The translations under genes and the position numbers were made by a program. The notes below the pieces were generated by a model that searched no databases, had not been told where the DNA came from, and saw only the letters and a list, made by a program, of their open reading frames with translations. A stretch of 48,785 nt of DNA, from the IMG/VR virus record IMGVR_UViG_3300025853_000005, positions 1 through 48,785 of that record; one strand, 5' to 3'. The stretch comes from a virus. Lineage: Duplodnaviria; Caudoviricetes. Numbering within the stretch: the first letter of the stretch is position 1; every line of letters starts with the position of its first letter. Positions 4,287 through 44,466 of the stretch are shown here, piece after piece.

Positions 4287-4568
4287 ATGGCAAGCGAACA
4301 ACAACCGGAGAACGGAATGAACGAGATAATCACAACGCAAGGAATAGAGTTTATTAAAAGCGAGCTAATGACGCTTGCGATGGATAATCAATATGTTGTT
4401 AAGTATAACACTGTGTATCTTGCGGTTTATACTAAAAATGCAGGTGCGCGACTTGAAAAGGTCTACAGGAGCCGTGGTGATTTACCACTCACAAAGCGCG
4501 GACGGTATCACACAATGGATTATAAGCGCGTAAATAAGTTATTAGGGTTTGAATTATTAATAGGATAA
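4287..4568 (+). CDS. early hypothetical protein
   Basis: ORF in co-oriented early cluster. Confidence 0.7.
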   Translation: MASEQQPENGMNEIITTQGIEFIKSELMTLAMDNQYVVKYNTVYLAVYTKNAGARLEKVYRSRGDLPLTKRGRYHTMDYKRVNKLLGFELLIG

Positions 4569-4634
4569 AAAAGGCAGTTTCGCAACGTACTCCAGAATTA
4601 AAATGGCATAAATAACCCCGGAAAGGAAAAACCA

Positions 4635-5171: not shown

Positions 5172-5248
5172 CCCCTAGCCCCCAAGCCCCGACCGCCTGA
5201 GCCTAAACCGCTTGGGCTTTCGTGGTGTAAACTAAAAGGAGCAAGCGA

Positions 5249-5461
5249 ATGAACGAGCTAACAGTATTACAAACAAACTACAACAGCGTTGAAAAATTAA
5301 TCAAAACCATGCCGGGAATGGATTATATAACGCTTCGGTACTGCCTTAACACTGGGAAACAATTAAGAAAGGATGCTAAAACGAGAGATGATCAGGATAA
5401 AGCTACAAAATTAATGATTGAAGCTACTGCATACCTAAATAAAAAGGAGCGCACCAAATGA
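5249..5461 (+). CDS. hypothetical protein
   Basis: AAGGAG RBS. Confidence 0.7.
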   Translation: MNELTVLQTNYNSVEKLIKTMPGMDYITLRYCLNTGKQLRKDAKTRDDQDKATKLMIEATAYLNKKERTK

Positions 5462-13620: not shown

Positions 13621-13851
13621 ATGGAATACGAAGCTAAAATTACGGAATACACGGTTAAGCCAGTCGAAGAGCAGACGTTCAGCATAAACGCAACGATCAT
13701 TCGGATTGCGGACGAGGGAGCCGGAGAGTTCATCACGCTGAGTCAGGAAACGGATACGAGAGAGAGTATCATCGCGGTTGAGAAGGAGGATTGGGAGCTA
13801 ATCAAGGGAGTGGTTGACGCGATGATGAAGACTGTGGAGGCGGGGAAATGA
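13621..13851 (+). CDS. hypothetical protein
   Basis: AAGGAG RBS; I..DEGAGEFI motif. Confidence 0.7.
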   Translation: MEYEAKITEYTVKPVEEQTFSINATIIRIADEGAGEFITLSQETDTRESIIAVEKEDWELIKGVVDAMMKTVEAGK

Positions 13852-14022
13852 AGGATTACATCAAGATTAAAGTTGACGGTGGGCATGAGGTTGCGATAAG
13901 TTGGGAGCAAGTTGAAGACGACGGTGTGAAGTTCGACGACTTCATGGAGATGCTAGAGGTTGCGATTGTCGCGGCGGGTTGGAGTCAGGAATTGTTTGAT
14001 AAATACATGAGGAGCGAGTAAC

Positions 14023-14940
14023 ATGGCATATTCACTACGTAAGGCGCGGAAAATTCTTAAGTTGGTTAAAGATATCGGTGAGTTCGATGCGTCGATTCAG
14101 CTAAACATCAGCAAGGACTCGGTGAAGCGAGCTTGTCGGTTGGCGGAGGGCGGAACTAAGCCTTTGAAAGTTACAGCGGGTAAGGGATTGCAGGGATACG
14201 TCAACGATGTTAAGCCGAAGTTCCGGTCGGACAATCGACCGATGTGTATCCACCCGGATATTCACGCGCCTTACTCACACCCTGATACCATTGAGTTTTT
14301 GAAGTGGGTTCAGGAGTGGAGAGGTTGCCAAGAACGTGTTGTGAATGTAGGAGACCTTCTGGATTTCCACGCTCAATCGCGGTTTACATCTGAGATTGAC
14401 GCTCATAATGCTGTTGAGGAGTACAAGAAGGCACTTGCATTTGTGGCTGACTACTCGAAAGCATTTCCTCTTGGGGACATGGTGTTAGGGAACCACGACG
14501 CTATCCCGCAGAGAGCGATGAAGGAGCTTGGTTTGCTACCATCAATGCTGAAGGATAGCAACGAACTTTACGGGTTGCCTGAAGGTTGGAATATCCACCC
14601 TCTTTATTATGTCATCGACCCCGATGGGTGGAACGTGCTTGTGGAACACGGGATCGGGAGTGGGGGGCGCTACGGTTGTGCCAACACCGCGAAGGAAAAG
14701 CGTTGCTCTTATGTAATGGGTCATGTCCATTCGGCGGCGGCTGTAATCTATAGCACGAATCATAACAGCACGATCTTTGGCATGAACGTTGGGTGCTTGG
14801 TTGATAGTGGCTCACTAGCCATGAGATATGGGAAGTACGGCATCAAGAAGGGAGTAATCTCTTGCGGTGTTGTGTACGGAGGCTCTCACGCAGAGGTTAT
14901 CACGATGGACACTTGGAAGAATTACAAAAAATGGTTTTAA
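14023..14940 (+). CDS. calcineurin-like metallophosphoesterase
   Basis: PDIH, GDLLD, GNHD, EHG, GHVH motifs. Confidence 0.9.
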   Translation: MAYSLRKARKILKLVKDIGEFDASIQLNISKDSVKRACRLAEGGTKPLKVTAGKGLQGYVNDVKPKFRSDNRPMCIHPDIHAPYSHPDTIEFLKWVQEWRGCQERVVNVGDLLDFHAQSRFTSEIDAHNAVEEYKKALAFVADYSKAFPLGDMVLGNHDAIPQRAMKELGLLPSMLKDSNELYGLPEGWNIHPLYYVIDPDGWNVLVEHGIGSGGRYGCANTAKEKRCSYVMGHVHSAAAVIYSTNHNSTIFGMNVGCLVDSGSLAMRYGKYGIKKGVISCGVVYGGSHAEVITMDTWKNYKKWF

Positions 14941-14943
14941 CGG

Positions 14944-14972
14944 TTGACACTATCGATTAGTTAGTGTATAAA
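14944..14972 (+). promoter_or_regulatory. sigma70-type promoter upstream of the HNH gene and the cassette array
   Basis: TTGACA-N17-TATAAA. Confidence 0.75.
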
Positions 14973-15071
14973 GATAAGTAACGGATTACTCGGGAGTAAT
15001 TAACCGAGGACAGCATAAAGCTCCATGTTTCCGTTATCTTTTTTTAAGGGGCTAAATACGGGAGTAGTACA

Positions 15072-15614
15072 ATGCCAGCAAAAAGACCCAACGAAGTATT
15101 AGAAGACCACGGTGATTGGTTGTTAGTTGATATCTCAACGCCTAAGTTTCCAACGGCCACGATGGCGGTTGATTCCGATGTGTTTAACAAGCATAAAACG
15201 GGCAGACTAACGGCGGTTAGAAAGAATGATCGCAAATCAATGTATGTTCATTACTCAATTAACCACAAAACATACCAGTTCCATAGTGATATCTTAGATA
15301 CCCCAGATGGGATGCAGATTGACCACAAAGAGCACCACAGCAACGACTATGTTGATAATCGTAGAAGCAATCTTCGTATTGTGACCCCCCGCCAAAACAT
15401 GCTTAATCAGGGTTTGATTTCAACCAACAAGAGTGGCGTTACTGGCGTTTATCGCAACAACCGAAACTCTAAGTGGGTTGCTCAGATCAACGTAAACGGG
15501 AAAACGAAACACATTGGAGTGTTTGAAGAGTTAGAGGACGCAAAAGAAGCTAGACATCATGCGGAACAGGAATACTACGGCGAGTACGCCTACAAGGGAG
15601 GAATCCAATGCTAA
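15072..15614 (+). CDS. HNH-AP2 homing endonuclease
   Basis: IDHKEH...DNRRSNLR; SGVTGVY...WVAQI...HIGVF. Confidence 0.9.
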   Translation: MPAKRPNEVLEDHGDWLLVDISTPKFPTATMAVDSDVFNKHKTGRLTAVRKNDRKSMYVHYSINHKTYQFHSDILDTPDGMQIDHKEHHSNDYVDNRRSNLRIVTPRQNMLNQGLISTNKSGVTGVYRNNRNSKWVAQINVNGKTKHIGVFEELEDAKEARHHAEQEYYGEYAYKGGIQC

Positions 15615-15739
15615 CGATGGCTGTGATGATATGGGCGAGGAAGACGGGGGTGGTGATTGACGGAATGGCGAGCGTTTTAGTTGCCGACTGCATCCTCGCT
15701 TGGATTGTGATGAGCGGGTTGGTGAAGATATTCGGGTAA
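15608..15739 (+). CDS. small hydrophobic protein (43 aa; not in ORF track)
   Basis: GGAGG RBS; MLTMAVMIWARKTGVVIDGMASVLVADCILAWIVMSGLVKIFG*; its TAA is part of attC site A. Confidence 0.6.
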   Translation: MLTMAVMIWARKTGVVIDGMASVLVADCILAWIVMSGLVKIFG

Positions 15740-15789
15740 CGACTAAAATGAGCGGTGGCGAAGCCATACGTTCTATTGACTGGTTAGAA
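15734..15789 (-). other. attC-like site A
   Basis: + strand GGGTAAC-GACTAA-AATGAGCG-GTGGC GAA GCCAT-A-CGTTC[T]ATT-GACTG-GTTAGAA. Confidence 0.8.
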
Positions 15790-15801
15790 ATGGAGAAAAT
15801 T

Positions 15802-15987
15802 ATGGATGAACAACTGATTGAAGAATTGAACAACGCTCTGGCCGTTCTGTGGAAGGCTGGCCGGAAAACTGAAACTCTGGTTGATATTAAACAGCTTGAG
15901 AAATCGGCACTGCTTGCGCTCTCGATGGGGTTTAATGCGGAGAGTGACGACGGGATTGATTATGATGCCGCTTATTTCAATTTCTAA
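15802..15987 (+). CDS. cassette 1 hypothetical protein (61 aa)
   Basis: GGAG RBS at 15792; stop TAA inside the core of site B. Confidence 0.7.
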   Translation: MDEQLIEELNNALAVLWKAGRKTETLVDIKQLEKSALLALSMGFNAESDDGIDYDAAYFNF

Positions 15988-16038
15988 CGACTAAAATGAG
16001 CGGGCGTTTTAACGCTACGCTCTATTGACTGGTTAGGA
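15982..16038 (-). other. attC-like site B
   Basis: + strand TTCTAAC-GACTAA-AATGAGCG-GGCGTTTTAACGCTA-CGCTC[T]ATT-GACTG-GTTAGGA; arms near-identical to site A. Confidence 0.85.
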
Positions 16039-16063
16039 TGGCGAAAGAAACTAAAGGAGTATT

Positions 16064-16303
16064 ATGGCACATCACAAACTAAAGATTGCACAACCATACA
16101 TGGATGCCAAGGAGTGCGGAGACAAACCCTTTGAGGTTAGATTTGACGACCGAGGCTTTCAAAAGGGAGACACTATCACCTACACAAAGGATAGTGCTCC
16201 GTTTTTTGAATATGATGGCATTTACGAAATTACCTATGTGACTGGATTCGCTCAAAAACCTGATTGGGTTGTATTTGGTGACAAGATTAAAAAGCCATCC
16301 TAA
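16064..16303 (+). CDS. cassette 2: DUF3850 / ASCH-PUA domain protein
   Basis: HKLKI...GDKPFEVRFDDRGFQKGD...EITYVT...WVVFG. Confidence 0.85.
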   Translation: MAHHKLKIAQPYMDAKECGDKPFEVRFDDRGFQKGDTITYTKDSAPFFEYDGIYEITYVTGFAQKPDWVVFGDKIKKPS

Positions 16304-16384
16304 CGCCTAACATGACTTTCGGTGCGGTCAACCTCGACTACCGCTCCGGACGTTTTCACCGTAAAGTCGATGGACTGGTTATGT
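16298..16384 (-). other. attC-like site C
   Basis: + strand TCCTAAC-GCCTAA-CATGACTTT-CGGTG...CACCG[T]AAAGTC[G]ATG-GACTG-GTTATGT; canonical extrahelical G and T. Confidence 0.9.
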
Positions 16385-16401
16385 GAACATTGGAGAACCA
16401 A

Positions 16402-16623
16402 ATGACTAAGATTGATCTGTTAAATATGATGAAGAAATTCACCGTTGATTACCGCGAAAGCGCAAACACTTCGATTAAGCGAAACAACCACATGAACAAC
16501 GCAACGGGAGCTGAAATTGCACAGGAAGACGTTGACGCTCTTCTCGTTGATTTCATCAATTACGTTGGAGTCAAGCAAGGCGTTGATTATGCGCTATACG
16601 CTTCGGATTTAAAATCCACATAA
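16402..16623 (+). CDS. cassette 3 hypothetical protein (73 aa)
   Basis: GGAG RBS; RNNHMN...DALLVDFINYVG...GVDYALY; stop inside the core of site D. Confidence 0.8.
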   Translation: MTKIDLLNMMKKFTVDYRESANTSIKRNNHMNNATGAEIAQEDVDALLVDFINYVGVKQGVDYALYASDLKST

Positions 16624-16670
16624 CACTTAGATCACCTGCCCGAAGGGTCTGGTGCATCGCATGGTTGGAA
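16618..16670 (-). other. attC-like site D
   Basis: + strand ACATAAC-ACTTA-GATCACC-TG-CCC GAA GGG[T]CT-GGTG[C]ATC-GCATG-GTTGGAA. Confidence 0.85.
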
Positions 16671-16685
16671 AATTAAGGAGATGGT

Positions 16686-16859
16686 ATGAACTTCAACGAG
16701 TTAATGAGAGTTGTGCGCAAGACGAACCCGCAGATGGAATCCGGTCGGGTGTCGATGAGTGCGGAGAACTTCGAGAAGGCGATGCGATTCGCGTTTGAGA
16801 AGGGGGAGTCGGCGGGGCGCGGTCTTGAGATGTTCAACGGGTTGTTTGGAGGCGGGTGA
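16686..16859 (+). CDS. hypothetical protein (57 aa; not in ORF track)
   Basis: AAGGAG RBS; MNFNELMRVV...GLFGGG*. Confidence 0.6.
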   Translation: MNFNELMRVVRKTNPQMESGRVSMSAENFEKAMRFAFEKGESAGRGLEMFNGLFGGG

Positions 16860-17035
16860 TGAGCAACGAATACAAAGATTGGATGCGGGAGAATCGGCAA
16901 GACGCGCTCTTGATCATTGACAAGTTGGATGATGTGATTGATTCGCTCGATGAATTGCGGAGTTACGATTGCTCGCAACAGATAATCATGCAGTTGATGA
17001 TAGCGCGGGAAGCGTTGAGGGAGGAGTCGAAATGA
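16859..17035 (+). CDS. hypothetical protein (58 aa; not in ORF track)
   Basis: GGAGG RBS, TGATG overlap; MSNEYKDWMRE... Confidence 0.6.
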   Translation: MSNEYKDWMRENRQDALLIIDKLDDVIDSLDELRSYDCSQQIIMQLMIAREALREESK

Positions 17036-17178
17036 TTAGCGTAATTGTTAATGGTGAGTGGTTGGAAATCCGGCACATCGATGTCGAGGGCAAGACTATG
17101 GTTGTGAGGAGCGTAAAGATTTAGCGGAATGAACCGCTGATAGAAAATAAAGGAGTCCTAAAAGACTGTTTTACTGTG

Positions 17179-17216
17179 AACCCCGCCACTCTTAGCAGAA
17201 CATGGCGGGGTTTTTT
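17179..17216 (+). terminator. rho-independent terminator
   Basis: CCCCGCCA...TGGCGGGG stem followed by a T run. Confidence 0.8.
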
Positions 17217-17350
17217 ATGTACTACCCTCTAAAACGCACAGAACACACCCTTAGATGGCGAGAGCCCATTCATATGGTATATGAGTCACATCATCGAGCA
17301 ACGCGCTTAAAACGGTAAATACGCCCATTAAAAATAATTAAACTTTTTTG

Positions 17351-17379
17351 TTGACAATAACGCTCGTGTAATGTAGATT
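17351..17379 (+). promoter_or_regulatory. sigma70-type promoter of the HNH gene
   Basis: TTGACA-N17-TAGATT, AT-rich upstream. Confidence 0.65.
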
Positions 17380-17501
17380 ACGTGGAGATTCAAAAAAAAA
17401 ACGTTCGTTAGATGGACTGAATAATAAATTTTAGCACACCTTGATTCGACTAATCTAACTAGTCGGGTTGAGGTGTTGTTATTTACAGGAGTTAGATTCC
17501 T

Positions 17502-18233
17502 ATGAGTAAAAGAAAAACGCACGAAGAGTTTGTTTCAGAAATAGGTAATAGGCCAATAAGGGTTTTGAACAAATATATAAACTCAAATACAAAGTTAGAA
17601 TTCCAGTGTGAGATTTGCGGTGCGAAATGGAAGGCCGTTCCGTTCAGCGTGTCACAAGGAAGCGGGTGCCCTCCATGCGGGAGAAAGAATGGATGGGGAA
17701 AGTTAGAAAAAACAAATGATATAATTGAGGATCATGGTGATTGGTTGCTAATTGATATTTCAACAGACAAGCATAAGAACTCTTCCATGGCAGTAGATAC
17801 CGATGTGTGGGATAATTACAATAGTGGCAGAGTATATGCCATAAAATATGCAAAAGATAAATACATATACGCAAAGTATTCTGAAAAAAGAAAGCCAAAA
17901 AGTTTTCACCATGTAGTTATAGATAAGGTTGATGGGGTTTTAATTGACCATATAATCCATGGAGACTCATCTTTTATTGACAACAGGCGTAGTAATTTAA
18001 GATACGCAACAAATTCTCAGAACACAATGAATCAGAGTTTAAAAAGAACAAATAATAGCGGAAAGACGGGTGTTCACTTTAATAAAAGAAGGGATAAATG
18101 GGTGTCAACAATATATATTAATGGTAAGCTAAATCACTTGGGATATTTCGACAACATAGATATAGCCATCGGTGTCCGTCAACAGGCTGAACGCGAGCAC
18201 TTCGGTGAGTACGCTTACGATTCCCATAACTAA
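17502..18233 (+). CDS. HNH-AP2 homing endonuclease with N-terminal Zn-ribbon
   Basis: CEICG...GCPPCG; IDH...DNRRSNLR; SGKTGVH...HLGYF. Confidence 0.9.
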   Translation: MSKRKTHEEFVSEIGNRPIRVLNKYINSNTKLEFQCEICGAKWKAVPFSVSQGSGCPPCGRKNGWGKLEKTNDIIEDHGDWLLIDISTDKHKNSSMAVDTDVWDNYNSGRVYAIKYAKDKYIYAKYSEKRKPKSFHHVVIDKVDGVLIDHIIHGDSSFIDNRRSNLRYATNSQNTMNQSLKRTNNSGKTGVHFNKRRDKWVSTIYINGKLNHLGYFDNIDIAIGVRQQAEREHFGEYAYDSHN

Positions 18234-18319
18234 TCGGATGTTTTTTGTACCGAACGGACATAATGTTACCAGAAGCACCGGATGTGGATGCAATTTGTAC
18301 CGAGCGGGATAAGAAGCCA

Positions 18320-18339
18320 GTCACTTATCGATAAGTGAC
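18320..18339. repeat. perfect 20-bp palindrome where the two arms converge
   Basis: GTCACTTATC|GATAAGTGAC. Confidence 0.9.
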
Positions 18340-18371
18340 GAGGTTTTGTAAATGGAGGTCACAGATTGTGA

Positions 18372-18875
18372 CTACCCATCAAGCAGACGCGGTGACGCGA
18401 GCATGAAGTTAGGGGATTGCATAAACGGAGGCCAGTGCAACAGCACCACGCCACTCATCATCAGGCAGTGCGATGCAAGCTCGCTACAGAACCACTTATC
18501 CTCGTTGTGCTTCCGTCTCCTCGTCACGAACCCACCAATCCCCCGCCAGTCATACTTCTTCCCAAGCAAACCGATTGCAGTTTTGAGAATCCCAAGCGAT
18601 TGCTCCGGGGTCTGCTCGAAATTGAAGACGGTGCAGTTGTCACCGCCCTCAAACGAGTGGTGAATCACGCCTTTGAACTGGATGCTTTCGATTTCATGGT
18701 CAGAAGTGAGGTGTATTGCGAACTTGTCGCGGATTAAATCCCGCACTTCCTTCTCAATATCCTTGAACCGGAGCGAAACGTGCGAGTATTTCCCGCGAGT
18801 CATCCGCTTGATAACCCCTGAACCTGCTCCCTTGCCGCTCCAACCCACCACCTGAACAATCATTTCACTCTCCAT
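18372..18875 (-). CDS. permuted papain-like (YiiX/YebB, NlpC/P60) amidase
   Basis: YSHVSL...GKKYDW...WFCSEL, with His before Cys (permuted order). Confidence 0.85.
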   Translation of the reverse strand: MESEMIVQVVGWSGKGAGSGVIKRMTRGKYSHVSLRFKDIEKEVRDLIRDKFAIHLTSDHEIESIQFKGVIHHSFEGGDNCTVFNFEQTPEQSLGILKTAIGLLGKKYDWRGIGGFVTRRRKHNEDKWFCSELASHCLMMSGVVLLHWPPFMQSPNFMLASPRLLDG

Positions 18876-18963: not shown

Positions 18964-21345
18964 TTACGGCTTCCAACTAACACCGTTCGTTGTGTTTCCA
19001 ATCCAAATCTGATTAGTGAACCCGCCCTCCTCATAGAAACCAACTGAACCAACTATAGAGTTGTTTACAAATATTGAAAACTTCTCAAGAAGAGTGATGT
19101 CACCGGATGTAGACGAGTAGAAAGACCCCACCGCGTTACTTGAAATATTATCAACGAACATATTGCAGAGTGCAGTGGAATCGACAGCTATATTTTCATT
19201 AGTTGATGAACCGCTATTCTTATAAAAGATTGAATCATAGCAATTGCTGAAAACATTATCCTTCACAAAGCAAAATGCGCTTTGATTGATTGTCCTGAAC
19301 TCTGGTTCTCCCTTGGTAGTTATAATCTGTTGAAGGGATACCCCTCTGGATAACTCAATGAACGTATTACCAACAATATCAACCTGATAACCAGACCCGT
19401 ATATCTGCACACCAGCAGATGCCGAATAGTTTTCTGGTGGTAATGCCTCTGGTCTTCCATCAAATTTATTAGAATAGAACACCTGATTATTATTCACCGT
19501 TCCATAAGAGATTGAACTACTTGTATCAGGAGTTACGCGCCAAGAGTCTGTTAGCGTCATAACAATACCAGTACCATTAGAAATAACACTATCCACAAGG
19601 AGGTGCTGACCCAGACCAGTTCCGTTGACCACATATGCAACCATAGCCTTCGCCCTATTATCCCACGCATATGAGTCGGCGGCAAAGGTGATGCTATTTG
19701 AGGATGTTGCAATCGGGATGCCAGTATAGTAAGTCTGTGGGCCTTCATATAGATATTGCTCTCCAGAGTTCTGATCCACAATATCTGCCATTACGGCAGA
19801 TACAGTGTATGTTGGAGACATTTTCGCGGCCTCAGAATACGAATCTTTTTTGATATATACCGTACATGTGTTATTAATTGCATCCATTGTCTTCACATAA
19901 CATGGCAGTGCATCTTCTCCATCTGGGCCAATTCCATCTGGGCCTACAGGAACCCACACCTTAACACCAGACCATTCAACAGACCCATCTCCACGACCGT
20001 GGAACTCATTAGGTATATTATCGAATGTAAACGTACAAGGTTTGGCTGGATCAAGGTCTGGAACATCTACCTCCGCACCCAGCGCACTGTAGGAGGTAAT
20101 CACCCCATTCGTGAAGAAGGGGGTAGGCCGCCGTGCCAGCATGTTGATGGTTTCATTCTCTCCAATGTAAACACAATTATTTTCCCCGTCATCTACAATC
20201 CAACGCCCCTTTGCCCATCCATATCCCTCAACAGCATCAGAAACATCGTAGTTTGTTGCAGTCCACCCAGTCATATCGACACCTGTACTTCTCCTAATAG
20301 TTATCATCTGGTTGTTGTCCCATAGACCATAGAAGGTGTTATTAACAAATCTACTCTGATCGGTTGGATTAACAGCGATCCCGCCCTGTAAGTAGAAGGT
20401 GCAGTTGCTTATCAGAAAACGTTCACCATTTGATAGGCGAAGTCCGTGGGAAAAGTTTCTGGTAGAGTTGCGGTCATCAATGACCACATTCTCCATGATC
20501 AGACCCACTTCACCGCCAAACTGAAGAGGAGCATTATTTATTACCGCATCTGAAAGGAGGATGGTGAAGTCCCGAAGTTTAGTATTATCATCCGTATAGA
20601 TTAGAAAATCAGATGTCCGACCTGTATCGGTTGCTGTAATAATGGTGTTGGTTCCATCTCCCACATATTGTTTATTTCTATCTAGGTACAATACGCCTTT
20701 AATCGCATAGGTTCCTGCGGGGAAGTAGCAGATTCCGCCAGAGGGGGTCGCATTCATCGCCGCCTCAATCTCGGCCTGACAATCCGACGCTCCTGTGTTA
20801 TCGGCATTATACGGGTCATCTGTGACATTTACCCTGTTCGTAACCCACGCATAAGGGCTTTCGACTGTTAGCGATAGTGACTCGCTCCATCCATACTTCT
20901 TTCCGTGGCCGTTGTGGGCATAAATAGTCTTCGTCCCATTCGCCCAATTAGTGGGCACAACAAACTCGGCTTTGTAGGGGTTCGTGTTTGTCGTGCTAGT
21001 CAACCAATCGTTCTCTTCGACGCAGTACAGATGGCTATTGGTTCCATCGCCAAGTGCAAGGTTGCGACCATAGACATAGAACGTTTCGCCCGTTGATACC
21101 GTATCAAAACCGACCCACCACGCTTCAGCCTTATTGATGGCGATTGGTTCACCATAACCGTATTGGTTTTTAGGCCAAGCGAGGTACAACTCATTAGCGG
21201 GGAGCGTGGATGGTAGCGTTATAGCACCTTGTCTCCCATCTTGTAGCGTATAGTTAGTGGATACTGCAACACCCTCTCCGAAGAACGTGAAGTCGGTTGC
21301 GAGCGCGGTCGATGCAGTCATCAGAATAGCTAAAACTAATCTCAT
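18964..21345 (-). CDS. pectate-lyase-like beta-helix protein (putative depolymerase) with signal peptide
   Basis: VNVTDDPYNADNTGASD...AIEAA-like...YFPAGTY motif, N-rich parallel beta-helix repeats; N-terminus MRLVLAILMTASTALA. Confidence 0.8.
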   Translation of the reverse strand: MRLVLAILMTASTALATDFTFFGEGVAVSTNYTLQDGRQGAITLPSTLPANELYLAWPKNQYGYGEPIAINKAEAWWVGFDTVSTGETFYVYGRNLALGDGTNSHLYCVEENDWLTSTTNTNPYKAEFVVPTNWANGTKTIYAHNGHGKKYGWSESLSLTVESPYAWVTNRVNVTDDPYNADNTGASDCQAEIEAAMNATPSGGICYFPAGTYAIKGVLYLDRNKQYVGDGTNTIITATDTGRTSDFLIYTDDNTKLRDFTILLSDAVINNAPLQFGGEVGLIMENVVIDDRNSTRNFSHGLRLSNGERFLISNCTFYLQGGIAVNPTDQSRFVNNTFYGLWDNNQMITIRRSTGVDMTGWTATNYDVSDAVEGYGWAKGRWIVDDGENNCVYIGENETINMLARRPTPFFTNGVITSYSALGAEVDVPDLDPAKPCTFTFDNIPNEFHGRGDGSVEWSGVKVWVPVGPDGIGPDGEDALPCYVKTMDAINNTCTVYIKKDSYSEAAKMSPTYTVSAVMADIVDQNSGEQYLYEGPQTYYTGIPIATSSNSITFAADSYAWDNRAKAMVAYVVNGTGLGQHLLVDSVISNGTGIVMTLTDSWRVTPDTSSSISYGTVNNNQVFYSNKFDGRPEALPPENYSASAGVQIYGSGYQVDIVGNTFIELSRGVSLQQIITTKGEPEFRTINQSAFCFVKDNVFSNCYDSIFYKNSGSSTNENIAVDSTALCNMFVDNISSNAVGSFYSSTSGDITLLEKFSIFVNNSIVGSVGFYEEGGFTNQIWIGNTTNGVSWKP

Positions 21346-22037
21346 TATAAATCCTCTCCGGTCAGTGCGATGGTGTCGCCCGCGTCTGCTTGTCGTGTGA
21401 ACTCGGCAACTTCAGGCGTTGATCGGTTTGGCGCAACTGGCGCAACGGTTGGTGCAAAGTCAGCGAACACAGCAGGGAAGTTCGTGGTTGGCACTGCCGT
21501 TACAACCATATCGGGCGGAGCGCTCGTTGGTTCCTCTCCGCCGTCATAGACGAGCGTTGGCGCGTTATCAGAACCGGACACTTTGAACCAAGAACTCTTT
21601 GATGGGAAAGTGGTACGACGACCCGAATCGTAATAAACTATTGTAGCAAATTCCGTGTATGTTATTTGCCAATTATTAAAGATATCGAAAGTTATCCAAT
21701 AATAATTACCCTTCTTATACGTTGGTCTTCCGTTCACTGTTGAGTGGTAGGAGTAGGTTCCGTTTGCTGTCGCTTGTCCTGCGCCTTCAACGAGTATGGT
21801 TAGTGGCCCACCGTTCGCGGGATATGTCGGAGAAACAGGAACGTATTTGATATCAGACGAAGCAATCCCAGAACTTGCCACCTCAAGATTCACGCCCGCC
21901 GATGTCGTGGTGTTAGTGCTTGCGGGGAACGGATTATAAGCACCTGATATATCCACACCACCTTCTGAAATCTCCATCATTACGATAGAGGCGTGGGCTG
22001 AGAATGCGAGCATTGCGCAGGTTAGGATTCTGAACAT
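21345..22037 (-). CDS. signal-peptide-bearing tail-region protein
   Basis: MFRILTCAMLAFSAHA; GAG..ANGTY...NGRPTY domain; TAATG overlap with next gene. Confidence 0.75.
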   Translation of the reverse strand: MFRILTCAMLAFSAHASIVMMEISEGGVDISGAYNPFPASTNTTTSAGVNLEVASSGIASSDIKYVPVSPTYPANGGPLTILVEGAGQATANGTYSYHSTVNGRPTYKKGNYYWITFDIFNNWQITYTEFATIVYYDSGRRTTFPSKSSWFKVSGSDNAPTLVYDGGEEPTSAPPDMVVTAVPTTNFPAVFADFAPTVAPVAPNRSTPEVAEFTRQADAGDTIALTGEDL

Positions 22038-22043
22038 GGCAAC

Positions 22044-22244
22044 CTACGGTGCTACAAAGATGACGCTCGTTGAAGTGCATGAGATTGCCCAACCGTTCGT
22101 AAAGATTAGCGATGCGATTGATGATTCACCCTCGACCACCGCGATTGCGTTCTCAACCTGCGCTGTGGTGTAGCTTAGTTGCGCGGCATATGACACGACG
22201 GCTACAATGGCGACGATGATAATGCTTGGTAAGTACTTGCTCAT
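22044..22244 (-). CDS. small signal-peptide-bearing protein
   Basis: MSKYLPSIIIVAIVAVVSYA-AQLSYTTAQV; GGAG RBS. Confidence 0.7.
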   Translation of the reverse strand: MSKYLPSIIIVAIVAVVSYAAQLSYTTAQVENAIAVVEGESSIASLIFTNGWAISCTSTSVIFVAP

Positions 22245-22263
22245 AATATCTCCACCTTATTTC

Positions 22264-22458
22264 TTATTGCAATTTTATTTTCGCGGGACACTGTTCAATG
22301 TGCCTGTCAAAATCTTCCTTGGAAACGTAATCTTTAGCAATAAGCAGTAGGGCATCCTTAACAGCATTGCCAATTACCAATTTCATCGCCCAAGCATTAA
22401 AGGCAACAATTGCCATTACCGAAGTTACACCCACACCTATCGCTGACCAGTCCATCAC
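22264..22458 (-). CDS. small single-TM membrane protein (holin-like candidate)
   Basis: N-terminal hydrophobic helix, charged C-terminus. Confidence 0.5.
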   Translation of the reverse strand: MMDWSAIGVGVTSVMAIVAFNAWAMKLVIGNAVKDALLLIAKDYVSKEDFDRHIEQCPAKIKLQ

Positions 22459-22528
22459 ACTACCTCGTTCTTGTTTGGAGTCGCGCCTACCCCTAAGCGC
22501 GATTATAGTTAATTAATCTCTGCTATTA

Positions 22529-23128
22529 TTAATCGTAAAATACCTGCTGAACCATCACCTGTATATCATAGATGGTGATGTCTGACCCGCCTGGCCCGTC
22601 AACCGTTGTATCAATCCATATGCCACACCCGTTATTAACAAAGGTCTGCATTGAGAAAAGAGGTATCCCTATCGAGTATTGTATTTCGATACCGGATGCT
22701 TTGGGAGCGCCGAGGGTTCTGGCGGCAATCACCGGCCCCGCACCATCACCGATGTCGAACTCAATATCGAAGAATGTAGCTCCGACTGCCGCTTCAGCTT
22801 TGAACTGCACCCTGACATTATACGCATTGCCCAACGCAGACGAAACAATCTCGTTGGCATTTGTATCCCATAATGATGTCACACCATTTGGTAGGTAGGT
22901 GGTTACGGTTTGTGAACCCAACCCATTACATGAGATGTTTGTTCTCGTATTATTAATCACAATACCTGTTGCGGTATTTGTATGAACACTATCAAAGTAG
23001 ACCGCCCAACCGAGGTGGTCAGCGCGGGTCAGAAATTGGTCAACCTCTGCCGTCGTATATGACAACTGCGCCGCGAAACATGAACCTGCAACTATCAATC
23101 CAATCAATCCTGCTATAATCTTCTTCAT
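22529..23128 (-). CDS. signal-peptide-bearing beta-rich protein
   Basis: MKKIIAGLIGLIVAGSCFA-AQLSYTTAEV. Confidence 0.75.
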   Translation of the reverse strand: MKKIIAGLIGLIVAGSCFAAQLSYTTAEVDQFLTRADHLGWAVYFDSVHTNTATGIVINNTRTNISCNGLGSQTVTTYLPNGVTSLWDTNANEIVSSALGNAYNVRVQFKAEAAVGATFFDIEFDIGDGAGPVIAARTLGAPKASGIEIQYSIGIPLFSMQTFVNNGCGIWIDTTVDGPGGSDITIYDIQVMVQQVFYD

Positions 23129-23136
23129 AATATCTC

Positions 23137-25572
23137 CTATGCTGTGTAAATTACATTTCCGCCCACATCAAGAATCAAGTCGCCACCAACGTCACGGAGA
23201 GCCGCGCTTGTTCCGCCAAAGTACGATTCGTTCTTTGCGTTTTCGGCGGGTGTGAACTCTCTCGTCACATCGTATTGAACCGCCTCGCTAATATTATCGC
23301 CCGACTTCTTGACCCACAGATTTAGCGAGCCATTCGTGAGATAGTGCGCTTCGTATTGCGCCTTGGTTTTCTTATCCCAAGTAGCGGCATCGGATGTGTA
23401 GAAGCATATCCCGCCGAACACGGTTTCATCCGCATCCGTCTGAATCAGCGTAACCTCCGAGCCGTTGTGGACGTAGCCGCCTTTGTTGGCGATAAGTTGC
23501 CCATACTCAGCGTCAGTCCCATTACCTCTAGTTACCGCTACAGATGTCGCGGGATACGACTTTGAGATAAAATATGCAGATAAATCATTACCAAATGAAT
23601 CAAGACCATCAGCAGTATAATGCACGTTATCCACGTTCAAATCATAACCACTCGTATCAATAGCCAGCCCACCATTAGACGCTACAAAACTATCAATGGC
23701 AGAATTTACAGCAACGGTGTACGAACCCGCGCCTACCACAACATGCCCCATTGCGTAATCGACATCGCTTGGAATGATTCCATCAGCAATGAGATCGTCT
23801 GTAAATGTATTCAGATTTGCTAAGTAAGCGTCTGCATTAACCTGAACCTGAGAATCAGCCTCGCCCTGCATCCACCAGAACTGGCGAATGGTAGGAACAT
23901 AACCGGATAACTCAAGAGCCGCAAGTGTGTCAGCAACTTGTAATTGAAGATTCTCATACAATCCCTTCGCTGAACCCTTCTGCCAGTCATCATATAGATT
24001 TGAACCCCCATCAGAAACCTTGATGAAGCATATTCGACGACCCGTGGCGGTGATTTCGATACCCGCCTCAAGCTCCGCTCCATAGCTTGTGTTGCTATAT
24101 TTAACAAGTTGTATTAAATCTTCTGAAGCAACATTGTCTGAGATGTTGTACCCAAATAAATGAGCTTGAGCGGAGTCCCACTTGGCGGGAATTGTCTCCT
24201 GCGGATAGCCCTCACAGTTAGATTGACCCGCAAAAATAACTACGTCTATATCCACCTGAGACATACCTTTTATGGACGGAGAATACTTTACTGGCAATAC
24301 GCCTGTTCCTGCATTAGAATAAACATCACCGCTTATTTTATCAAGAAATCCGCCACTTATCGGGATAACATCCAAGGCCAATCCACTTGAATTCCAAATC
24401 TTTATGTACTCCCATTGCCCTTTGGCAAAGAAAGATGAGTTGCTTGAAAACAGTTGAATGATTGGGTTAGAGTTTCCTAGTAGACCTCCGCCAGCCGCCA
24501 GAGACTGTGTTACCCCATTTATAGATATGGTTTCAGCAGTAAAATCTACGATTGATGTTACAATCTCGTCATTAGGGACTGTCCCAGTTGATTTGGAATC
24601 GCCAGCCCCAGAAAAATTAGCATGTATTGTTCTATCGGTTGCGATAAATATAGCGGCTGATCCCGGGCCAACTGTATTGGCTATTGTGCTATTACCCGTG
24701 GTATCATTAACACCGCGCCACTCCACCTTTGTTATTCCCACAGATGATAAGGTTGTATTTATAAAATCATCAACACCGTCTGTAATTAAAAGCGGGGTGC
24801 ATCCGTTAAGATGAGTCCAACTAGGAAGCCCGTCAGAGGTTGCCCAGATTGCACTATTAGAAAGTACAGGTGTATTATTAGCAGAGACATCATTAGGCAA
24901 GTCGTAGCCCTCTGACATTGAATAACCCTGAATCATGCTAGGTATGTCATAAGTTCCAGAAGTATATATAGCGATAGACTCCTCTGAGCTTAATTCCTTA
25001 TCAAAGAACATTACTTGAGACATATATCCTGTTATTTCAACAGAGGCATAGGAGCCGATAAACGATACTGTTGCGCCTGTGTTCACAACCTCAACTGGTA
25101 GTGTCCCAATAGACACCCCATCAATATATAGAGTCGATGACGTTCCCGTCTGGGTTATTACAAGATTATACCATGTATCTACAGACATAGTTGGAACTGT
25201 AAATATGGCGGGGGAACCGTTTGCGTTTGGAAACCAATCAATCCTTGTTGAACTAACAACCCTTAGCAGGGTAATACCGTAGGCTATTAGATGACTTGAA
25301 ACCCCAAGACTATCCAATCGGAACCACATAGATGCCGAAAACTCAGATGTCGCACTTAGAGAGCCCAGAGCCGTTGACTCTGCGCCAGCATAACGCAAGC
25401 AGTTCACATCCCGCACTTCCGGTTGCGGATTCACCACGTCAACCTTGTCCAGAATCGTGATGCCGTCAGAGTCTACGCCCTTCAGCCATTGCAGGATGTC
25501 ATTTCGGGCGGCAGGTGCTTTCACGCCGCCACCAAGCAACATGAGCAGGTGAGTGTAATTCATAGAAGCCAT
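23137..25572 (-). CDS. tail fibre/receptor-binding protein with LamG domain and SGNH sialate-O-acetylesterase-like (SASA/CE6) domain
   Basis: FSASMWFR...WYNLVIT...LYIDG (LamG); FAGQSN, WMQGEAD, DNVH (SASA-type esterase motifs). Confidence 0.85.
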   Translation of the reverse strand: MASMNYTHLLMLLGGGVKAPAARNDILQWLKGVDSDGITILDKVDVVNPQPEVRDVNCLRYAGAESTALGSLSATSEFSASMWFRLDSLGVSSHLIAYGITLLRVVSSTRIDWFPNANGSPAIFTVPTMSVDTWYNLVITQTGTSSTLYIDGVSIGTLPVEVVNTGATVSFIGSYASVEITGYMSQVMFFDKELSSEESIAIYTSGTYDIPSMIQGYSMSEGYDLPNDVSANNTPVLSNSAIWATSDGLPSWTHLNGCTPLLITDGVDDFINTTLSSVGITKVEWRGVNDTTGNSTIANTVGPGSAAIFIATDRTIHANFSGAGDSKSTGTVPNDEIVTSIVDFTAETISINGVTQSLAAGGGLLGNSNPIIQLFSSNSSFFAKGQWEYIKIWNSSGLALDVIPISGGFLDKISGDVYSNAGTGVLPVKYSPSIKGMSQVDIDVVIFAGQSNCEGYPQETIPAKWDSAQAHLFGYNISDNVASEDLIQLVKYSNTSYGAELEAGIEITATGRRICFIKVSDGGSNLYDDWQKGSAKGLYENLQLQVADTLAALELSGYVPTIRQFWWMQGEADSQVQVNADAYLANLNTFTDDLIADGIIPSDVDYAMGHVVVGAGSYTVAVNSAIDSFVASNGGLAIDTSGYDLNVDNVHYTADGLDSFGNDLSAYFISKSYPATSVAVTRGNGTDAEYGQLIANKGGYVHNGSEVTLIQTDADETVFGGICFYTSDAATWDKKTKAQYEAHYLTNGSLNLWVKKSGDNISEAVQYDVTREFTPAENAKNESYFGGTSAALRDVGGDLILDVGGNVIYTA

Positions 25573-26488: not shown

Positions 26489-29400
26489 TTATTTGTCGTA
26501 AACCCCGATTGATAGTCCCAATCCCTCGCCAATTGCTAGTGCCGCTGTTGTTGGAATTGTCTCACCTTCCTTGTATGCTTCAGCCGCAGATTGAATAATG
26601 AGCGGGATGAAATTCTCCACAACACTTCTAACCTCTTCTGGCAGAACAGTATCGCCCAATTCTATCGGTTGAACCTCGCGACCAACAATATCCTTACCAG
26701 TGATTAGCTCTATAGCAAGCAAAGCAGGAGGTGCTAATTTGTACTTCAGGAAACTACCGATGTCACTAAGCGGGTCAATATCAGTCTCTCCGGTCGTCGT
26801 CTTCTCGTAGATACCCTTGATTGTTTTCGCAAGAATCCGCATTGGTTGCTGAACACCACCCCAAATATCAATTCGCTTATTTCCTTGAATGATAATCTTG
26901 CCAAAATCGGAGTCGTCTGGGTCTAATCCAACCTCAGCACCTGCCGCCACCGCCATTCCCATAATCGCCATGCCAGTTCCGAGAAGCGCACCCCATTGTC
27001 TCGCCATCTCTCCGCGTAATTCAGGCTGTTGAACCGCGTTTTTGACCGCCATATACGGGGCTTGAACGCGAGATAATGCGAATCGCGGTGCAAAAAATAC
27101 TAGCGAGAGTTCTTCAGCCGCCCCGCTAAGATTACCAAGATCACCGCGACCCGTTGCAATATTTACATACTTTGCGTAAGCCTTCTTTGCTTCATCAGAT
27201 GCGTCAGGATGCTTTGTAAGGAAGTCGGACATCAATCCGGTGCGCAACATATTTAGTCCCGTAACCATATTACGCTCTGATGCCATTACAACCTTACCAA
27301 ATCCCGGTATCTTCTCGGCAAGGTTCGATGCAAAGAACTCCTCACGCTTTGAGATTGCGGAGTCAATGTTCGATAGATGCAGTCCATACTTGTCGAACTC
27401 AGCTTTTTGCGGGTGATTCTTAATGTCCAAGTCAGCCGCATCAGCTTTATTCTGCGAGAAGGTTGCTTGAAACGCCTTCCCCCATGCCTTCCCCGCAATG
27501 ACCGGATGTCCTAGTGACGGGAGCAATCCTTGACGAAGACCGTATGACATATCCATTGTGGCGAGCATTGAGCGGGGAAGTGTTATAACTTCTTTTGCCA
27601 AATCACGCATTGTTCTTGGGCGCAACTCATGGATATTATTCCGCGCCTCGCGCTGTAATTGGTGCAGTTTAATCCGCGCATCAGCCAATTCTTTACTCTT
27701 AACGGTTGCCTTTTCCTTGCTCGTAATCTTGTAGTTGCCCGTCCGAATCTGCTCCTCAAGGTCAGCGATTTTGTCCAACGTATCTCTCGTACTAATCACC
27801 TCGGACAAGTCTTTTTTGAACTCAGCAACCCTAGCACCGCGTTGTTTCACAGGAATCGGGAGGTTTCTGTACCCCTTGTCAATCTGATCCTTGACTTTCG
27901 TGATAGACTTCTGTAAATCAACGATTACCTGCGCGTCAACCTTTCCGCCACCAATCATTCCCTTGGTTCTCAGTGCAATTTCCTCTTTCAAGAATTTGAT
28001 TTGCGCTGATAAATCGTCTAATGCGGGTGATTTCGAGTTCTGAATCTTTGGTTTCGTGTAATCTCCGGTGCGAATCTGCTGTTCCAAGTCAGCGATTGTG
28101 TCTAGTCCCTTCACGCGAGCGAGTAGCTTCTTAATCTCAAGGTTAGCGGACTTAATTAACTCCGATTCCTTGCGCTTGCTCGGCTTCACATCGCGGTACA
28201 ATCCGTCAATCTGCCGTTTCAACTCACCGATTCGCTTCATCTTCTCGGCATAAACCGTTTCGTCAGTCTCGGTCACGCGGTATGCGGACTCAAGCAGACC
28301 AAGTTTGCGTTTCAATTCGGTAACCTCACCTGATGTTGGTTCGGTCTTACGCTTCGGGTCGAACACGCGATTGAATGCGTCCTCAAGCTGACCGGACAAC
28401 TTCGCTTGCTTGATGATTTCAGCCTTGCGCTTCATCGTGTCCGTCTTGGCTCGCTTCTCAAACTTCTGTACGCGCCCACCAATCGAATCCCAGATGTTCT
28501 TGTCGCTCAGGTCAGGGAGATCGCTCTTAACTAGCGCAGTGACCTCTTTAAGCGTCTGTGCGCCATCCTCAATGTAGTTCGCCGCCAATTTGGATATAAG
28601 ACGCGCTGACTCAATCGTAACGCCTGTGATGTCGTTTACGCGGTATCCGAGAGCTTGCAACTCATCCTTGATTGCTTGGCGGTCTGTCTTAATATCTTCT
28701 TTCTTGCGAGTCTTCCGAGTCTTGCGAGCCTTTTCAATCGCGGCATCAGCGAAGTCACGCGCTTGAAGGTCTGTGATTTCTTTCTCAAGTTCCGCAATCT
28801 TTTTAGTTTGCGCCTCAATCTCGTTGCCCAAGTTCGTTAAATTCTGCTGTTCTTCGGCAGTCAACTTCTTACCCTTTGATGCTTTTGCTCTACGAATCAA
28901 ACTCGTCAACTCGTAACTATCCAGTGCAATTCTCAGCTTGCGAATCTGTAGCGCACGACCCGCTTCGGTTTTCGAGAGGTCAGCCGCGTAGGTCAGATTG
29001 TCCATCGCCTTATCGAGTCCGTCGAGTTTGGCTTGGTTCGCCGATGTATCTTGCCCTGCATCAACTTGCGCGTTTATTTCATTGAGAAGTTTCTTCATCT
29101 CGTTGCTGATTTGACCCGCACGAACAACCATTCCCGCGTGTTCTTCCGGTGTCACAACTCTTGGCTTTTTAAGCACTTCAGCCGCAACCGTTTCTGCGTT
29201 TCTGTCTGCACCCGATTTCTTTGCGTTCTCAAGCGTGTCGATATTCTTCTGCGCTTCTTGAGGATTCAGACCCTCGAAATCCATGTCATCACGGATTGTT
29301 GCGATGTCATCACCGACTAGCGACATGGTTTTCTTTGGCGGAACAACCTTCTCAGCAACAGGTTTCGCTTTCTTCGGAGCCACCTTCTCCGCCCCGTCCT

Positions 29401-43908: not shown

Positions 43909-44466
43909 TTAATCTCCGTCAGTCACGAACTCAATCGCGCTTTCTTTTAAGCAATACTCTTTCGAGTACAAAATTCTCTGAAGATCGTCGGATGATTCCG
44001 GTGCAACGCAGAACTTCCCTATGTCTTCCTTCGTTAGATGCTCGCAGTCGTCCGCCACATCCAATATCTCCACCCAATTCGTGTTCTCTAAGAAGCCGTC
44101 CGTCATGTGAAGAACAACCTCGCCTTTTTGGTCGCATACATGGTCGTTCTGGCACTTCAAAACTTTAACGAATTTGTTGACGGGAGAGAACTGGTCATCC
44201 TTTTCTTTTGCGTAAAGGACGCTATCCTTGACAACCGCGAACTCACTCCCGCCAACATTATAATCCACCACCCCGTAATGGGGTATTAACAATCGGTCGC
44301 CCGATGTTACAAATTTGTCACTTCCTGAGCTATGAACTGCGCCCCTATAGCTCTTAACCTGAGCGCCGTCACTAATCTCAATATCATTGTGCGTCTTCTC
44401 TTGGGCATCCCTCTTAATGAACACCCAGTTTCCAACAGCTTTTAAATTGTTTCCTTCCATCGCCAT
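43909..44466 (-). CDS. tandem GroES/Cpn10-like co-chaperonin
   Basis: LKAVGNWVFIKRD...GDRLLIPHY...FAVVKDSVLYA, then a second unit FSPVNKFVKV...YCLKESAI. Confidence 0.7.
   Translation of the reverse strand: MAMEGNNLKAVGNWVFIKRDAQEKTHNDIEISDGAQVKSYRGAVHSSGSDKFVTSGDRLLIPHYGVVDYNVGGSEFAVVKDSVLYAKEKDDQFSPVNKFVKVLKCQNDHVCDQKGEVVLHMTDGFLENTNWVEILDVADDCEHLTKEDIGKFCVAPESSDDLQRILYSKEYCLKESAIEFVTDGD

Follow-up and report, generated by a model that had tools for sequence, protein, structure and literature searches.

Do the integron-type recombination sites found in the small-gene region of a phage delimit true gene cassettes and, if so, which way do these cassettes face and what moves them? The window analysed here (48,785 nt) has direct terminal repeats and is complete as a virus record: it represents a whole phage genome. 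Four attC-type hairpins (A to D) occupy 0.94 kb of it (15734-16670), each beginning at the stop codon of one of four successive genes. Six-frame searches of the complete genome detected no tyrosine recombinase or integron integrase (no PF00589 or TIGR02249 match), so that the locus is a CALIN and, with no intI found in the whole genome, not a complete integron.

Genes for recombination and replication, along with small genes, lie on the plus strand between about 4 and 18 kb (57 ORFs scanned), and the minus strand carries terminase, capsid and tail-like genes. Relatives of the terminase are remote (34 records matched, 23-25% identity in the best 12 of the 34), and a blastn search of the region against annotated phages returned a single record, through a 55-nt HNH match. 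A second viral contig (L002) carries the same array; as it possibly comes from related material, it argues against mis-assembly only. Elsewhere in the genome, large tail-like proteins (18964-25572) show pectate-lyase beta-helix, sialic acid acetylesterase and laminin G domains, a 1692-aa structural-region protein (26489-31567) contains an ART-PolyVal ADP-ribosyltransferase domain (PF18760, E 6.7e-11), a GroES-like (Cpn10) domain adjoins the terminase (43909-44466), and five HNH genes are present.

attC sites and cassettes of the array

The features of the locus are the following.

15608..15739, plus strand: 43-aa backbone gene, whose TAA stop gives the AA left of the first crossover
15734..15789, minus strand (canonical top; predicted recombining strand plus): attC A, bulges T/A, spacers 6/5, 21.3 bits
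15740..15987, plus strand: cassette A, 248 bp (attC A + RBS + 61-aa ORF), 9-nt end complementarity
15802-15987, plus strand: ORF A, no family; an in-frame ATG at 15790 would add 4 aa
15982..16038, minus strand: attC B, bulges T/A, spacers 6/5, 37.4 bits
15988..16303, plus strand: cassette B, 316 bp (attC B + RBS + 79-aa DUF3850 ORF), 11-nt end complementarity
16064-16303, plus strand: ORF B, DUF3850 (PF12961, E 2.8e-14; phrog_986, E 1.8e-14)
16298..16384, minus strand: attC C, the most canonical site, bulges G/T, spacers 6/5, 39.2 bits
16304..16623, plus strand: cassette C, 320 bp (attC C + RBS + 73-aa ORF), 8-nt end complementarity
16402-16623, plus strand: ORF C, no family match
16618..16670, minus strand: site D, degenerate attC, bulges C/T, spacers 5/5, 24.6 bits
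16686..17124, plus strand: three small backbone ORFs (57, 58 and 30 aa) 3' of site D, found in relatives' contigs
17181..17216, plus strand: terminator-like hairpin with T run, closing the gene run, read by eye

All four sites have inverted R boxes with an AAC/GTT core, L boxes and spacers of 5-6 nt, and they read on the plus strand as AAC, spacer, three pairs, stem, loop, bulged stem, 5-nt spacer and GTT. Each has two extrahelical bases on the plus-strand 3' arm, opposite the cut AAC, exactly where a first-pass annotation of this DNA had placed them. Its description of site C and of 6/5 spacers in A to C also agrees with the sequence, which reads at site C as AAC + 6 nt + CAT GAC TTT CGGTG ... 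CACCG [T] AAA GTC [G] ATG + 5 nt + GTT. Its expectation of G and T as the bulged bases holds for site C, but A and B carry T and A, and D carries C and T, so that the first extrahelical base is G in one site of the four. A site near-identical to attC A in another contig (L016) does carry G at this position.

It had further been proposed that the canonical top strand of these sites is the minus strand, and the anatomy of a canonical bottom strand indeed lies here on the coding strand. The attCaadA7 forward primer listed in the supplement of Qi 2023 (PMC9892861) has the same anatomy as the plus strand of A to D, and in a class 1 array (L014) the aadA genes run opposite to the strand with that anatomy, which is thus non-coding. 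In bacterial genomes, a pattern derived from the window matched 17 loci, of which Ideonella contributed ten, and the homologous sites sit in arrays with genes on the opposite strand; the family of attC B is common to chromosomal attC sites of Ideonella and other bacteria. The strict A/B-family pattern matched this phage only among viral contigs. A covariance model built from 20 canonical top strands and run on both strands of the 48,785 nt (E<=5) gave four matches, exactly A to D and all on the minus strand, as had been predicted. Ten of the 20 model rows had been found with the window-derived pattern, and the strand entered for each row was the one opposite the bulges; this test of polarity therefore leans on the evidence from bacterial arrays. 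A sequence-only model from 16 independent sites yielded no match better than E 0.38 and was uninformative, and folding energy is about equal for both strands and does not tell them apart. Compared with shuffled sequences, only B folds clearly better (z -3.5; A -0.65, C -2.0, D -0.8).

Polarity aside, A, B and C behave as gene cassettes, that is, discrete units bounded at the R-box crossover whose ends are complementary in the circle. The gene 3' of each of A, B and C ends in a stretch that pairs over 9, 11 and 8 nt with the GTT box of that site, against 4, 5 and 4 nt for the gene in front, and the sites re-formed in the circles fold better by 4.0, 9.7 and 4.0 kcal/mol, respectively. Among 126 consecutive viral site pairs, this complementarity averages 8.5 nt, versus 5.8 and 5.5 in the two comparison arrangements (p 4e-14), and it reaches at least 8 nt in 84 pairs, versus 23 in place and 13 reversed. 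No matching cassette end was found for site D in 16670-18400 (best 4 nt), and D is thus not a bounded cassette. The same end-matching method recovers attI1 in a class 1 control (L059) and found no attI around the array; as attI sites are poorly conserved in general, one may still be present.

The three cassette ORFs all lie on the bottom strand of their attC sites, each after its own attC, instead of in the canonical ORF-then-attC order. The first-pass unit of attC, RBS and ORF ending at TAA is therefore right in polarity and composition, but there are three bounded cassettes and not four. In-frame TAA stops do occur at all four positions that it had listed (15737-39, 15985-87, 16301-03 and 16621-23, for ORFs of 43, 61, 79 and 73 aa), but the crossover can be placed only within the 4-nt TAAC and not at an exact TAA^C. 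In addition, A to D all show a stop two codons past AAC in the AAC frame, as do 73 of 199 viral and seven of 76 control sites; such a stop would end a gene arriving in that frame. The 16-29 nt between GTT box and ORF start are too short for promoters in all three cassettes, and a promoter scan was at chance level (11 versus 10.1 expected by chance).

As for cargo, only two of 79 viral DUF3850 loci have an inverted attC ahead of the gene (L173 by scan and model, L158 by eye), and these attC sites are unrelated to B. The closest DUF3850 relative, 69% identical, is an ordinary operon gene. None of the three small backbone ORFs after site D ends in TAAC, and ORF D has a single homologue, without context. 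The hairpin at 17181..17216 is missing from the list of the automated scan, as its loop exceeds the limit of that scan.

Natural alleles and the TAAC junction

Relatives of the phage provide natural alleles of the array (contigs only, from four of the 24 listed runs; X2 is possibly the source sample). A joint 15736->16621, with four shared letters, skips 884 nt and was seen in X7 and X6, from two other studies. In X7 it lies in a 1585-nt contig, with 141 nt on the short side and three other letters per piece, and in X6 the short side measures 26 nt. X6 shows another joint, 15984->16621, which skips 636 nt, again with four shared letters and a short side of 26 nt and marked 'between: not known'. 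Both lengths are sums of cassettes: 884 = 248+316+320 (A+B+C) and 636 = 316+320 (B+C). In X8, two other sequences precede 16621/16622, abutting site D. Joints and X8 neighbours together mark as backbone the 43-aa gene and, on the right, site D with the genes that follow it, cassettes differing at D; the 43-aa gene is about 98% identical in relatives both with and without cassettes. Site D is thus a fixed right anchor for present, absent or replaced cassettes. The short alleles may be excision products or may never have received the cassettes. Homologous recombination between A and B was considered and rejected, since the observed joints end at D; as D has just TAAC in common with A and B, homologous recombination fails to explain them.

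Three variants differ right of an attC, after 15788, 16380 and 16669. An A-like arm is followed by another flank after 15788, and a C-like site by another flank after 16380; this C-like variant, with its changed loop, is probably a sister cassette. In X6, 37 other letters stand right of site D in place of ORF D (16669-16859), with no AAC joint.

Other contigs bear on the units as well. In L016, attC A and ORF A occur as a unit behind a different gene, with homology beginning at TAAC, and the matching end (10 nt) of the next cassette is not followed by a hairpin. The ORF A relative in L019 stops at TAA-C ahead of an unrelated inverted attC, the one in L017 has no attC in front, and a further protein (P0002) appears, from its translation, to read through into another attC. 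In two contig pairs (L049/L073 and L066/L115), attC and right flank are 100% identical and the sequences differ left of the core. Among 226 sites, nine pairs share the right flank only (attC identity 0.96-1.00 in three and 0.72-0.88 in six), and three pairs share the left flank only (0.61-0.84). L019 also contains two copies of one attC plus ribosome site (4487-4590 and 5189-5283) with different genes behind; in one copy the left spacer measures 7 nt, and in the other the left end is decayed.

The first-pass annotation had supposed that a cassette can insert at any TAAC stop. This finds no support in the natural joints, all of which lie at attC hairpins, above all at site D. It had also asked how often genes overlap the TAA: among 52 confidently called viral upstream genes, the TAA of TAAC serves as stop codon in 24, while 15 continue into the attC and 13 end earlier, and 13 of 33 canonical cassette genes overlap a TAA with the other R box. 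Given 24 of 52 and the RYYYAAC core, a TAA at the joint is common, not required, and partly built into the core. According to the passages of the Loot preprint (10.1101/2022.09.11.507474) considered here, a GWT triplet is sufficient as a cassette insertion target (attG). A TAA-C stop could thus have been the first landing place for site D, and insertion at such a secondary GWT site is a possible first step bringing D behind a TAA. The right-hand attG motif CRGM matches at three of four positions at the first junction, which we treat as chance.

Upstream of the 43-aa gene, three genes within 13848-15614 also end in TAA-C (14021, 14940, 15614), making seven such ends in a row here, versus three among 73 other predicted genes. 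The covariance model detected no attC in this interval, and its TAA-C ends may have arisen by chance or be remnants of cassette ends. In L016, the TAAC that ends a 34% relative of gene 13848-14021 lies immediately 5' of attC A. At 14934-14964, similarity to the right arm of attC B (74% over 31 nt) points to a possible decayed attC; the segment overlaps a promoter-like TTGACA-17-TATAAA ahead of an HNH gene. Relatives skip that HNH endonuclease gene (14937-15596) or have other sequence in its place (joints 14936->15597 and 14232->15596).

Orientation of attC sites and sources of integrase in phages

We surveyed orientation with an orientation-neutral pattern for aadA7-like sites, which gave 111 matches in 100 viral loci on 94 contigs; this viral set represents one site family and is not dereplicated by species. 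Genes were called with a home-made caller, which agreed with annotated strands in L001, L003 and L006 and missed genes in GC-rich L022. The inverted layout is found in 76 of the 94 viral contigs (five canonical, two mixed, 11 uncalled) and at 71 of 97 unique viral sites (five canonical, one mixed, 20 uncalled), as opposed to two of 80 control sites (48 canonical, two mixed, 28 uncalled), the control being bacterial-type arrays plus TJE1 from few lineages. A second pattern retrieved six loci: this phage, three inverted and two near-identical canonical ones. The survey that the first-pass annotation had called for thus shows inversion to be dominant in viral contigs and not in bacterial-type arrays. 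In several loci, among them L044, L058, L078, L109, L110 and L016 (871-885), no hairpin is present at the site where the last cassette ends, but a 5-nt spacer and a TAGA motif recur there, resembling a simple attI-like site; these loci lie in phages with no IntI detected or searched.

IntI scored above the cut-off in three of 50 viral attC records (the longer ones of 98 candidates) and in one of the ten records at least 90% complete. These three are a class 1 integron, a provirus array whose orientation was not firmly called, and G021, in which the site ending an inverted cassette is no hairpin and a same-strand intI in two pieces comes after it, downstream of the array. The Rctr41k IntI reaches 383 bits against a cut-off of 265, and several inverted sites were read by eye in that genome; used as a query, it retrieved one viral locus (L143), with no clear attC nearby. 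In Rctr41k (L008, KX853513, 4680-10100), the integrase lies inside the operon, and the inverted array downstream of it contains methyltransferase genes. For most such phages, among them the one studied here, the enzyme would have to be supplied in trans.

Proposed mechanism, alternatives and known systems

We consider it likely, with a probability of about 0.78, that the array consists of three inverted integron-type cassettes, present, absent or replaced at TAAC, with the host or another phage supplying the integron integrase that moves them. Both sequence and natural variation (in contigs, with no excised circle seen) support the cassette model well; we infer the enzyme and the strand preference of A to D. 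The plus strand would fold when single-stranded and be cut at AA^C; two attC sites would recombine and release a circle, in which the ORF end would pair with the cassette's own GTT box. The circle would re-insert at an attC, for instance D, without damage to the upstream stop codon. Facing the phage early operon, the genes could be transcribed from it, so that no integron promoter would be needed, and excision of A and B would be slowed by the T that takes the place of G as their first bulge.

Could another enzyme do the same work? Movement of these inverted cassettes in trans by a Xer-like or other phage recombinase would fit the low count of records with IntI just given and the non-G first bulges of A, B and D. 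However, no PF00589/TIGR02249 match exists in six frames of the genome, the sites belong to a family found in bacterial chromosomal arrays, inverted PH101 sites work with IntI1 according to the text of Qi 2023 (PMC9892861), and two phages with inverted sites carry IntI-family genes; we regard such a recombinase as unlikely. Far less probable is recombination of the attC sites on the minus strand at the right-hand box, the mobile unit being ORF plus following attC. A few variants change the flank right of an attC, as this would predict, and top-strand recombination does occur, 1000-10000 times more rarely (Nivina 2016, PMC5027507, in the passages considered). Yet the pairing that it predicts, of ORF ends with the next GTT box, is observed over 5, 4 and 3 nt, against 9, 11 and 8, the homology in L016 begins at TAAC, and the empty allele should keep A and lose D, whereas it keeps D and loses A; this leaves the minus-strand unit scarcely credible.

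Two further readings were considered. A piece of bacterial array with chance antisense genes, copied into the phage, is suggested by the bacterial distribution of the attC family and by the antisense genes that exist in canonical arrays (two of 80 control sites). This reading is already largely refuted, and very improbable, as all three genes are inverted with no room for promoters (16-29 nt), the relatives found are viral or metagenomic and mostly ordinary operon genes, flanking attC sites are lacking at 77 of the 79 DUF3850 loci and at all four viral loci with ORF C relatives, variation within the phage population proceeds cassette by cassette, and inversion is the rule in viral contigs. The phage-type design proposed at first pass, as opposed to a copied chromosomal array, is upheld by inverted polarity, end complementarity, natural joints and the viral survey. 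A reading of the hairpins as regulatory or terminator-like repeats, with the deletions due to illegitimate events at 4-nt micro-homology, is also hardly conceivable. The hairpins of A and D are weak and TAAC is short, but R boxes, asymmetric spacers, one-sided bulges and model scores speak against it, end complementarity is realised only in the circle, four independent joints fall at the same base of D, and no T runs follow the hairpins.

Beyond the favoured reading of integrase-moved inverted cassettes, we tentatively suggest, as a possibility that we hold rather doubtful, that phages keep a mirror-image cassette pool and turn their own operon genes into new cassettes. An attC that lands at a TAA-C stop would head the next resident gene, and a second landing at the stop of that gene would make it an excisable cassette. 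Site D, an attC ahead of backbone genes with no matching end, would then be a half-made cassette and, were this true, the array would be a direct handle on the origin of gene cassettes.

The integron field has taken orientation as fixed by bottom-strand selectivity, with genes facing the integron promoter. A phage pool of opposite layout would be expressed in phage operons and silent if captured at a bacterial attI, and this silence would separate two cassette pools despite common sites and probably common enzymes. Integrase-less phages would gain a site-specific means to swap early genes. The locus is a compact test case, with three short cassettes, full, partial and empty natural alleles, and natural G/T variants of the strand-selecting base.

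Canonical cassettes (Bouvier 2009, PMC2727003; Nivina 2016, PMC5027507; passages of both) share with this array the R and L boxes, the 5/6-nt spacers, the bulges on the arm opposite the cut AAC and the extended pairing in the circle. Here, unlike in canonical cassettes, the gene lies on the bottom strand behind its attC, no intI, attI or Pc is found nearby, the anchor is a degenerate attC, and the first bulges are T, T, G and C instead of G. In the passages considered, Bouvier 2009 reports a cut between A and C on the bottom strand, pairing over 9-11 nt in the circular form, and a strand choice set by the side of the first bulge, whose identity is not essential: a T there has a 1.8-fold effect on integration, and lowers attC x attC deletion 68-fold. 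Nivina 2016 states, in the part considered, that cassettes inserted facing the promoter were never observed in mobile or chromosomal integrons; that case is one of cassettes inserted the other way round; in this array, all attC sites share one orientation and it is the genes that are reversed inside the cassettes. The joints also differ from attG sites and SALINs in lying at attC hairpins and not at bare stops, and the passages of the Loot preprint considered here treat neither phages nor inverted genes.

Among the closest known systems are the phage CALINs of Qi 2023 (PMC9892861), described there as attC clusters without integrase, with TJE1 and PH101 called typical. They resemble our locus in being integrase-less attC arrays in phages, with small genes between bacterial-type sites; the inversion of genes relative to attC is not discussed in the passages of that paper considered here. 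In our analysis, TJE1 is canonical (three of three sites) and ctTUS972 inverted (four of four model matches). PH101 has four sites, including the two tested in that paper, in which the bottom strand is the coding strand; the end-complementarity test supports one of its three pairs. In P12002L, attC1 is inverted and attC2 lies between convergent genes; attC1 reportedly did not recombine. PH101 sites recombined with IntI1, the bottom strand above the top strand by the text of the paper (the colour marking of the bottom strand in its supplement is lost in text form). Going by that text, the strand comparison called for in the first-pass annotation would in effect already have been made, on the inverted sites of PH101. 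No description of an inverted phage cassette class was found in the literature searched, which leaves most subscription papers outside, and the passages of PMC12690207 considered hold nothing on such cassettes. Phage CALINs are thus known, and inverted gene orientation as a class, judged from sequence, appears to be new to that literature; to the CALINs of Qi 2023 this window adds natural presence/absence alleles at the crossover.
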